Sequence record: PP461118.1 | Length of the DNA stretch: 64,000 nt | Strand: one strand, 5' to 3' | DNA from: Enterobacteria phage ECP2307 | Part shown: piece after piece, positions 53,042 to 54,457 of the stretch | How positions within the stretch are numbered: the stretch's first letter is position 1 | Layout: every line of letters starts with the position of its first letter | The notes under the pieces: generated by a model | Told to the model about the DNA's origin: nothing | The model's input: the letters and a program-made list of their open reading frames with translations, nothing else | The model's database searches: none | Position numbers and translations under genes: made by a program

Positions 53042-54457
53042 TTACCAGATGTAACGGTCAATCATTACTGCTTTGAGCATTACGCTGATTGGGTCAAACT
53101 TCTCACCACCAAGCAGAGCTTTTAAAGTGGCTGGAGAGAACCCTGATACCATTGCTACACCATTATCCTTAACAGACACTTCGCAAGTGCCATTACGGTT
53201 TGCTAAGTACCAGAATACCAGTTGTGGCATCTCATATCCAGCTTTTTTGTACTTGCTCTGAATTGCTTCAAAGTTTGTACGACCATTAGCCCCATCAACC
53301 TGATTGAACTCCATATCAGAGAAGATGATAAGCTTACTTGGCATATCTTTCTGAGTCAAGTTGTTTCTCTTACCTACGTCAAGAATACGGTCAAAAGCTG
53401 CTTGTAAGTTAGTTGAACCATACTCAACATGACGCATTACCTGACGATGACGGTTTCGTAAATCACCACTCAGTTCGATGAAATGAGGGTTTGTTGAATA
53501 GACCATTAACTCATCTTTAAAGCAACCTGTATTGCGTTCTGCTACATACAAGGCAAGTGATACACCAATATCAAGGGCAGTGATTGAACCAAAATTCACC
53601 CAAGACATTGAGCTTGAAACATCAGTCATACACAGGATGTTTTCACCTTCTGCCATCCAGTTTGGTAGTGCTTTCCACTGCTCATTAGCAACATCTGCAT
53701 TACCATGCTTGACAGATTTAATCACATCATATGGGTAAACAGCACCAGCGTTAATCTTAGTCTCACCTTTTGATAAGGACTCGATGTAAGCTTTGTAGCG
53801 TTCTCCATCTTTACGGTTAAAGAGTTTTTGGTAACGTGCAGCAGCGAGTGAAGGAATCTTGCTGTAGTCAATCTTACCAAACTCATTAGCAGAGATTTTT
53901 TGCTCAACCGTATCAGACAGTGCAGATAACAGTGTGCGGTACTCTTTCTCGCTTAAGTTTGCAAACTTACAGAAACGTTTTACAAACTGTTTGTGGCGTG
54001 GTTTTACGCGTGGTAACCACTTAGCTGCTAAACCTGCTGTTGCAGGGTCTAGTAATGCTGCTTCTAAATGTTTGAAGGCATCTGTCTCGAAACGAGTACC
54101 TACGAAGATTTTGAAGTCATCAAAACGACCAAGTTCTGCAATCTTATCCATAATGCGAAGAACCTGTGTAGGCTCTAAAACTTTATCTTCAATTGCTTGA
54201 AGTAAAACAGTTCGGAAAGCTTTACGCTCACCCATACCTTCTCGTACATCTCGCATATGCAGTAAAATACGAACTGCAACATCAACATCCTCACGCAAAG
54301 CTTTGTAGAACAGGTCTGGTAAGATTTCTACATTGCTACGGCTTGAGCCAGCGGCTTTGTAAAAGTCCACCAGAGCAGACATTGATGAAGTATGGTTTAC
54401 AGCACCATTTTCAGTTCGACCTGCATGAAGGTGCGCATGTTTAAATAACTCGCTCAT
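53042..54457 (-). CDS. von Willebrand factor A (vWA) domain protein with intact MIDAS motif and a ~260-aa alpha-helical N-terminal domain
   Basis: 471 aa; MIDAS DxSxS in ILCMTDVSSSMSW; later vWA-like strands (LIIFSDMEF); N-terminal domain not assignable by eye. Confidence 0.6.
   Translation of the reverse strand: MSELFKHAHLHAGRTENGAVNHTSSMSALVDFYKAAGSSRSNVEILPDLFYKALREDVDVAVRILLHMRDVREGMGERKAFRTVLLQAIEDKVLEPTQVLRIMDKIAELGRFDDFKIFVGTRFETDAFKHLEAALLDPATAGLAAKWLPRVKPRHKQFVKRFCKFANLSEKEYRTLLSALSDTVEQKISANEFGKIDYSKIPSLAAARYQKLFNRKDGERYKAYIESLSKGETKINAGAVYPYDVIKSVKHGNADVANEQWKALPNWMAEGENILCMTDVSSSMSWVNFGSITALDIGVSLALYVAERNTGCFKDELMVYSTNPHFIELSGDLRNRHRQVMRHVEYGSTNLQAAFDRILDVGKRNNLTQKDMPSKLIIFSDMEFNQVDGANGRTNFEAIQSKYKKAGYEMPQLVFWYLANRNGTCEVSVKDNGVAMVSGFSPATLKALLGGEKFDPISVMLKAVMIDRYIW

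Follow-up and report, generated by a model that had tools for sequence, protein, structure and literature searches.

The window, a 64,000-nucleotide stretch of DNA, probably encodes a divergent phage particle of the Ro60/Y RNA type, which would be formed by a 471-aa protein and small phage RNAs encoded next to its gene, and for which we infer both the RNA binding and the mechanism. The protein has a Ro60 fold and is the ortholog of gp130 of phage Bas63, and its gene is coupled to an RNA module in phages of hosts from different bacterial phyla. The countering of the ppl defence by the 98%-identical ortholog was established by others (PMC11482910). The interpretation of the protein is therefore supported and not new, since it already stands in databases and in a 2024 preprint. 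What is new here is the RNA side, namely candidate partner RNAs of a known anti-defence protein.

The source phage is a Felixounavirus, a Felix O1-like myovirus, and DNA-level matches to the stretch were found in 251 phage records, with an identity of 95-99% in 190. The 471-aa ORF of the Ro60-like protein, which had been called earlier in a sequence-only reading of this DNA, was confirmed with its ATG start at 53042..54457 on the minus strand, and it encodes a DUF2828 helical domain and a DUF7788 vWA domain. The same reading had placed the gene beside a tRNA array with structured non-tRNA elements, and both points held: 26 tRNA genes were found at 47699..52876 on the strand of the gene (-), the first one 165 nt downstream of it, and structured elements were found in the gaps between tRNAs, with the Y-like modules interleaved with the first ~1 kb of the array. 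Divergently transcribed small genes lie on one side of the gene and the tRNA array on the other, and the gene is outside the structural module. Two strong sigma-70-like promoters were predicted between the stop codon and the first tRNA, both on the minus strand and facing the tRNA/Y-like RNA array: TTGACA-17-TAATAT at 52995..53023, directly after the stop codon and within a 12-bp hairpin, and TTGACA-18-TAAAGT with a TG at 52903..52932, ahead of the first tRNA. One more predicted promoter (TTGACA-18-TAAAGT, 54497..54526, - strand), a consensus match only, was located just upstream of the gene. In Klebsiella phage L009, direct reading of the sequence with no promoter scan showed a similar TTGACA...TAAAGT directly 3' of the stop codon of the gene. 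The idea that the annotated tRNAs are themselves the Y RNAs was rejected, as the Rfam tRNA model scored 24 of the 26 at 40-65 bits. For the other two, which have a long arm (Ser-tga and Tyr), the best score came from tRNA-Sec and was below its cut-off, and the Tyr tRNA is annotated as a pseudogene in UAB_Phi87.

By its sequence, the protein is in a family separate from TROVE. The Pfam search, which had been proposed together with the sequence-only reading and included DUF2828, returned DUF7788 (the vWA model PF25043, 148 bits) and DUF2828 (PF11443, 103 bits), both above their cut-offs. PHROG 850, which is labelled 'RNA-binding protein', matched over residues 1-471 (E 1e-183) and the protein is a full-length member of it. 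TROVE (PF05731) and vWA_Ro60 (PF25045) gave no Pfam match at E≤1, while the control, Xenopus Ro60, matched both models. Sequence searches of the PDB with phmmer and with a family HMM found no Ro60, and NCBIfam and PADLOC returned nothing for the 471-aa protein. For profile comparison, a Ro60 query with 537/538 identity to PDB chain 9nen_A was used; the homolog search with human Ro60 listed vertebrates only, so that the Ro60 profile was vertebrate-only and shallow. Against this shallow profile, hhalign aligned only residues 237-445, to Ro60 322-531 (probability 61%, E 8e-5). The aligned stretch comprised the last TROVE helix and the vWA domain, with DVSSSM placed over the DVSASM of Ro60 and the N-terminal domain unaligned, and against a single Ro60 sequence hhalign reached the vWA part only.

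The DVSSS that had been read as an intact DxSxS MIDAS motif occupies residues 279-283, and the full MIDAS set DxSxS...T...D (D279, S281, S283, T349 and D381) was indeed the same in all of 45 homologs, whose identity reached down to 43%. Many Arg and Lys residues of the N-terminal half were also invariant in this alignment. The family is very large: a word-indexed search gave more than 2,500 clusters at 90% identity, an exhaustive HMMER search 8,808 at 50% identity and tblastn 709 phage GenBank records. Among the matches listed for the representatives in the exhaustive search there were close family members only and no bridge to TROVE. Members occur in phages of Mycobacterium, Listeria, Vibrio (KVP40), Campylobacter, Staphylococcus, Enterococcus, Bacillus and Synechococcus, and also in Lak megaphages; existing annotations include 'Ro-like RNA binding protein' in Mycobacterium phages (SEA-PHAGES) and 'putative ribonucleoprotein' in Listeria phages.

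The AlphaFold2 model (pLDDT 89.6, pTM 0.89) was all-helical at residues ~28-263 and had an alpha/beta vWA domain at ~274-447, which agrees with the layout of a helical N-terminal domain and a C-terminal vWA domain read from the sequence. In the Foldseek search against the PDB, the top twelve matches were full-length Ro60 chains (E 2e-8 to 1e-6, TM up to 0.65), those of Thermus phage phiLo, Xenopus, human and Deinococcus Rsr, and isolated vWA domains ranked after them. In this comparison, another of the checks suggested earlier, Ro60 was the best match by a wide margin with the helical domain included. The likeness to Ro60/TROVE suggested earlier thus stood for the fold and failed for the TROVE sequence model. 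As modelled, the protein is a helical-repeat domain and a vWA domain in the Ro60 arrangement, the N-terminal half being linked to Ro60 by predicted structure only, and we propose that it is a divergent phage-type Ro60 in which a HEAT-like helical ring would be closed by the vWA/MIDAS domain.

Orthologs and relatives of the protein have been studied in other phages. The protein was identical to gp130 of Bas63 (Escherichia phage JohannRWettstein) at 460/471 residues (98%), and the locus of gp130 is identical in position, between a DUF5681 gene and tRNA-Pro and directly upstream of the tRNA array. According to the Bas63 preprint, ppl is a single-gene defence system with an ATPase and a PHP domain, and deletion of gene 130 crippled Bas63 on a ppl-carrying strain (PMC11482910). 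The deleted phage still propagated and plaqued in EOP assays, with a severe plaque-size defect on the ppl strain (PMC11482910). The protein gp130 countered ppl and the protection was transferable to T7; gp130 alone, plasmid-borne or carried by T7, was enough to restore growth on ppl in the absence of Felixounavirus RNAs (PMC11482910). The preprint authors had already noted the structural likeness of gp130 to Ro60 and guessed at Y RNAs among the tRNA genes (PMC11482910). In a P100-like Listeria phage, the homolog CKA15_055 matched Rsr by HHpred, and three extremely highly transcribed unannotated regions, on the same strand and within 2 kb upstream of it, were described as regions that 'may be Y RNAs' (PMC12282133). 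The positions of these regions broadly match those of three modules described below for the related Listeria phage LP-064, as a correspondence of position and not a mapping of the published regions onto the modules. CKA15_055 was also present in purified virions, with 20 peptides and 57% coverage (PMC12282133), a presence that could reflect delivery of the protein together with the DNA. In jumbo phages, ROT/TROVE proteins were described as an RNA-repair platform by Iyer et al., and Ro60 of Thermus phage phiLo, a true TROVE protein, binds the host PNPase and two Y-like RNAs encoded upstream of it (PMC12135203).

Four RNA modules were found in the array gaps nearest the gene, at 51898-52710 on the strand of the gene (-). 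Each module is made up of a stem, 1-3 nt, CAGCAA (usually ACAGCAA), an insert, the complementary stem and then a G. The exact pattern GACCN5CAGCAA was matched at four sites in the 64-kb window, which all lie on the minus strand within 52013-52702. Module A (52632..52710, -) is short and exactly fills the gap between tRNA-Glu and tRNA-Met; it has the stem AGACCAA/TTGGTCT, TTA-CAGCAA, an outer helix UGAC/GUCA and an AGA/G internal loop between the inner and outer helices. Module B (52478..52543, -), of short class I, exactly fills the gap between tRNA-Met and tRNA-Asn and has the stem AGACCGT/ACGGTCT, ATG-CAGCAA and an internal TTGCGGATAAAAG, which is common to units of Mycobacterium, Listeria and Staphylococcus phages. 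Module C (52043..52127, -) is again short, with the stem AGACCAA/TTGGTCT, ATT-CAGCAA and the outer helix GAGC/GCTC, and module D (51898..52035, -) is a long YrlA-like form with the stem AGACCGTT/AACGGTCT, TA-CAGCAA and a tRNA-like insert. The inner stems of the window copies differ compensatorily (GTT/AAC, GT/AC and AA/TT), and each copy has a covarying 4-bp outer helix (UGAC/GUCA, UUGC/GCAA, GAGC/GCUC and UUAC/GUAA), set off from the inner stem by an AGA/G internal loop. A possible degenerate mini-module (AAGGTT-A-TTACAGC...GAACCTT-G) at 50647..50681 on the minus strand was weak (E 0.39). The module was otherwise not found in the remaining ~4 kb of the tRNA array of the window and was present in the spacers nearest the gene only.

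A covariance model run on the whole window recovered units A and B only. The single-sequence folding z-scores of the short units were unremarkable (-0.6 to -1.8), so the case for them is carried by comparative evidence and not by thermodynamics. Rfam 15 gave no match of Y RNA type over the units at E≤10, nor in two homologous loci at E≤0.1, and a literature search of incomplete coverage found no description of these RNAs, which apparently form an undescribed family of Y-like RNAs.

The module was found beside the homologous gene and on its strand in all ten other cultivated lineages that were examined, the tenth (Vibrio phage KVP40) being weak. Three modules each were located directly downstream of the gene in mycobacteriophage GuuelaD, downstream in Staphylococcus phage S-CoN_Ph16, directly upstream in Listeria phage LP-064 and between the gene and the first tRNA in Klebsiella phage FBKp34. 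Campylobacter phage CPX and Enterococcus phage EFDG1 had two modules each upstream of the gene, Bacillus phage MrDarsey had five that were partly interleaved with tRNAs, Synechococcus phage B23 had two and Fusobacterium phage FNU2 had one. KVP40 showed weak candidates only: the strict pattern gave no convincing unit, one covariance-model candidate abutted the gene start (E 0.003) and another weak one lay in its tRNA array. The locus of the Listeria phage also has RtcB and an RNA ligase nearby. Unit B of the window shares CAGCAA...TTG(C)GGATAAAA with units of the Mycobacterium, Listeria and Staphylococcus phages, despite a protein identity of only ~30%.

In the cultivated loci, the strict pattern matched 21 times within 2 kb of the gene and on its strand (44 kb) compared to three times in the other 345 kb (P 2e-29), and 14 of these 21 near-gene matches came from loci outside the pattern definition. 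Alignment of 28 units in a fixed register showed that CAGCAA was invariant and that all seven stem pairs changed on both sides, with 95% of the cells paired compared to 34-41% when the register was slid. Because pairing was a criterion in choosing the units, this covariation count is biased; the enrichment tests are free of that bias. The covariance model built from these units returned near-gene, same-strand sites almost exclusively. An independent set was provided by 75 uncultivated viral contigs with a protein 39-48% identical to the window protein. In these distant metagenomic loci, all 36 covariance-model matches (E≤1) were on the strand of the gene, mostly within ~300 nt of it, and the strict pattern had 40 matches within 1 kb on the gene's strand compared to 2.2 expected from the rest (P 6e-36). 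Approximately 42 of the 75 loci were positive by either method in a tally of both match lists, and in ~44% the module was undetected within the flanks examined. tRNAs were present within 4 kb in 19 of 60 distant loci and, as in the cultivated loci that have them, always on the strand of the gene. The closing stem, which varies in sequence, the invariant ACAGCAA and the 3' G are likely to be the protein-binding module.

The insert of unit D contains, in order, an anticodon-stem-like CTTAA/TTAAG, a variable hairpin, a T arm (GAAGG-TTCGATT-CCTTC), an acceptor-like stem, TG and a D arm (GTGT-AATGGTA-GCAC). The acceptor-like stem has 7 bp and is closed by a tetraloop (ACTCGGC-AGAT-GTCGAGT). The Rfam tRNA model gave a partial, sub-threshold match of 22 bits inside unit D (51959-52009). 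The long units were too divergent for MAFFT and RNAalifold and their arms were located explicitly, which showed that the order T arm, closed acceptor-like stem and D arm is common to the long units of five lineages (the window, Mycobacterium, Enterococcus, Klebsiella and Bacillus phages). In the long unit of the mycobacteriophage, the acceptor-like stem was weakly resolved (4 bp in an automated pass).

In the mechanism that we propose, transcription of the four RNAs would start at the strong promoters of host type that directly follow the gene, and the RNAs would probably be released by the tRNA-processing enzymes that excise the flanking tRNAs. Since units A and B exactly fill their inter-tRNA gaps, tRNA processing would be expected to release them. 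The protein would then bind the RNAs through the stem and ACAGCAA. By analogy with Ro60/Rsr and Y RNA, the resulting RNP may bind structured, damaged or foreign-targeted RNAs or gate access to them; alternatively, it may recruit or neutralise host enzymes that handle tRNA or RNA, such as PNPase. The RNP would guard or manipulate RNA metabolism in the infected cell, with protection of the infection from host defence as the overall outcome. Candidate roles include surveillance of tRNA or RNA damage next to RtcB and RNA ligase (as at the Listeria phage locus), PNPase capture (as in phiLo) and a nuclease decoy. The main tension is that gp130 alone protects T7 from ppl, and this may reflect either an activity independent of RNA or host RNAs that substitute for the phage RNAs.

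The protein might instead act without RNA, as an anti-defence inhibitor in which a repurposed Ro60-like scaffold blocks Ppl or another host protein with its vWA/MIDAS face. The neighbouring RNAs would then have separate functions, for example in regulation of the gene, as processing signals or as independent small RNAs. Contacts between a protein and its ligand are the usual role of MIDAS sites, and the invariance of all MIDAS residues is in line with such an inhibitor, as is the activity against ppl of gp130 supplied alone, by a plasmid or by T7 (PMC11482910). However, host RNAs could still serve the protein in the T7 experiment, and an inhibitor of this kind leaves unexplained why a module with an invariant ACAGCAA tracks the strand of the gene, upstream or downstream, in phages of at least five bacterial phyla, and why one copy should mimic a tRNA, as known partners of Ro60 do. 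We regard a role of the protein on its own as unlikely. A much smaller probability is given to the modules belonging to the tRNA array, as spacer, processing or insulator elements or as tRNA-derived debris that co-occurs with the gene through shared tRNA regions. The long unit is clearly tRNA-derived, and units are interleaved with or adjacent to tRNAs in the window and in the Bacillus, Klebsiella and Enterococcus phages. However, the module was still present beside the gene in about one half of those distant loci that lacked a tRNA within 4 kb (by tally), the mycobacteriophage and Fusobacterium phage loci had modules and no tRNAs, and the other ~4 kb of the window array had no module. The presence of the module in tRNA-less loci indicates that it follows the protein and not the tRNA array.

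The reading to which we give the least credence, and which we consider very improbable, is that of a virion-associated or structural vWA protein with no role in RNA. The detection of Listeria CKA15_055 in purified particles (PMC12282133) would fit it, and the homolog in an Erwinia phage is annotated as 'putative structural protein'. On the other hand, packaging would also fit an RNP or an inhibitor delivered with the DNA, Bas63 propagates and plaques in EOP assays without gene 130, the gene has a sigma-70-type promoter ahead of it and tRNAs beside it and is not part of the structural module, and the fold is that of full-length Ro60 and not of a tail or baseplate vWA protein.

The preferred reading, a phage Ro60/Y-RNA-type particle, may extend beyond this locus. 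We suggest tentatively, and with somewhat more doubt than confidence, that the modules represent a very widespread and so far undescribed class of phage Y RNAs, with a closing stem and ACAGCAA in short and tRNA-mimic forms, that they have a dedicated Ro60 partner of the DUF2828 type and that the RNP is a general device for counter-defence or RNA protection. The hosts in this broader reading are Proteobacteria, Firmicutes, Actinobacteria, Cyanobacteria, Campylobacterota and Fusobacteria. If it is true, the RNP could be, for example, a tRNA-mimic decoy or a gatekeeper against nucleases such as Ppl, and phage tRNA arrays would be mixed operons of tRNAs and Y RNAs. For the family as it stands, the papers on Bas63 and on a P100-like Listeria phage each guessed at nearby Y RNAs and named none, and the module gives exact candidates: four in the window and similar sets both in the ten other cultivated lineages, where KVP40 is weak, and in roughly one half of the metagenomic loci. 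The Ro60/Y-RNA hypothesis thus becomes directly testable for a family of ~8,800 protein clusters. In addition, the modules suggest a function for some of the 'junk' that separates phage tRNA genes, and they would tie a known anti-defence protein to RNA biology.

Compared to known systems, the window protein is a full-length member of the DUF2828/DUF7788 family (PHROG 850, with CKA15_055 of the Listeria phage) and showed no difference from it. The Bas63 preprint suspected some of the annotated tRNAs as Y RNAs, whereas the candidates here lie in the spacers between tRNAs. Helical repeats and a MIDAS-bearing vWA domain are common to the protein and to Ro60/Rsr, and the helical domain of the window protein is ~85 residues shorter. 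The published Ro60/Rsr-binding motifs are GGUCCGA and GNCGAAN0-1G, whereas the phage module has ACAGCAA inside a closed stem. YrlA, an Rsr-bound Y RNA, has a tRNA-like domain ordered V, T arm, closed acceptor-like stem and D arm (Chen et al. 2014, PMC4201824). At its 5' side YrlA has GNCGAAN0-1G, the proposed Rsr contact, and the conserved 5' motif of unit D is ACAGCAA instead; a GGCGAAG lies just 5' of the T arm of unit D and is not conserved in the other lineages. Unit D has the same permuted V-T-acceptor-D order of a tRNA mimic as YrlA and, where YrlA-type RNAs are sought within 4 kb of a Ro60-type gene on the same strand, it lies ~1.0 kb downstream on the strand of the gene. Finally, the Ro60/Rsr systems (Yrl1/Yrl2 of phiLo and YrlA/YrlB of Salmonella and Mycobacterium) encode their partner RNAs on the same strand and no more than a few hundred nt away, as found here, and Ro60/Rsr Y RNAs occur in short and long forms, the long form with a V-T-acceptor-D domain, as do the modules of the window.

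Directly 3' of unit D, the long YrlA-like form among the Y-like units (candidate small RNAs in the spacers of the tRNA array), a nearly perfect long hairpin of 149 nt was identified on the minus strand at 51752-51900. Its minimum free energy was -48.3 kcal/mol with a z-score of -5.85, and none of 200 shuffles was equally stable. Small hairpins were also seen inside the long hairpin, one of which, CAGACCUUAAGCAAGUCUGG, recalls AGACC...GGUCUGG, the stem found in the Y-like units.

Other spacers of the array resembled these units or tRNA-derived RNAs. Between tRNA-Thr and tRNA-Val, a spacer of 95 nt (50109-50203, minus strand) carries GAAGACCGTAACAAATTCC and a long-range AGAGGTC/GACCTCT pairing. 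Despite this likeness to the Y-like units, CAGCAA was absent from the spacer, and it may be either a diverged relative of them or unrelated. The spacer between tRNA-Ile and tRNA-Arg (51271-51517, minus strand) is probably a further tRNA-derived element; it hits the Rfam models of tmRNA and permuted tmRNA weakly, at scores below threshold (16-29 bits). A candidate promoter sequence resembling TTGACA...TATAGT was also read by eye in this spacer, outside the promoter-tool scan.

Among the ARAGORN calls on the minus strand, the tRNA-Tyr at 52296-52383 had tRNA-Sec (26 bits) as its sole Rfam match, and its ortholog is marked as a pseudo-tRNA in the RefSeq record of UAB_Phi87. The 93-nt gene called as tRNA-Ser(gct) at 47779-47871 carries the annotation tRNA-Arg in Bas63.

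Proteins encoded within the array, all on the minus strand, included a DUF7217 protein of 265 aa (47873-48670), a DUF7338 protein of 185 aa (49059-49616) and an 80-aa product without any family match (49613-49855). The large terminase subunit (45651-47267) follows the array and these embedded ORFs. Upstream of the Ro60-like gene and on the same minus strand lies a 123-aa DUF5681 protein (54539-54910) with a very basic N-terminus rich in Gly and Pro, and its gene is kept beside the Ro60-like gene in the Felixounaviruses UAB_Phi87 and Bas63. A tail-associated protein containing three repeats of Ig-like type (56536-57669) and, after it, an endolysin (57669-58133) are encoded on the opposite, plus strand.

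In homologous loci of other phages, over-long 'tRNAs' were found directly after the Y-like units in Synechococcus phage B23 (L011, 7848-7957; 110 nt, annotated Undet) and a Klebsiella phage (L009, 8003-8116; 114 nt, annotated Asp), and these may be mis-called long tRNA-mimic units. The metagenomic viral contig L035 carries a tmRNA gene with the tag ANTNFALAA (257-707, plus strand) approximately 3.3 kb upstream of its Ro60-like gene. Downstream of the Ro60-like gene of Listeria phage LP-064 (L005, 8078-12525), an RNA-repair-like cluster was identified, comprising a metal-dependent phosphohydrolase, an RtcB-like ligase, a DUF1768 protein, a 'tRNA amidotransferase' and an RNA ligase; this is similar to the bacterial rsr-yrlA-rtcBA arrangement.
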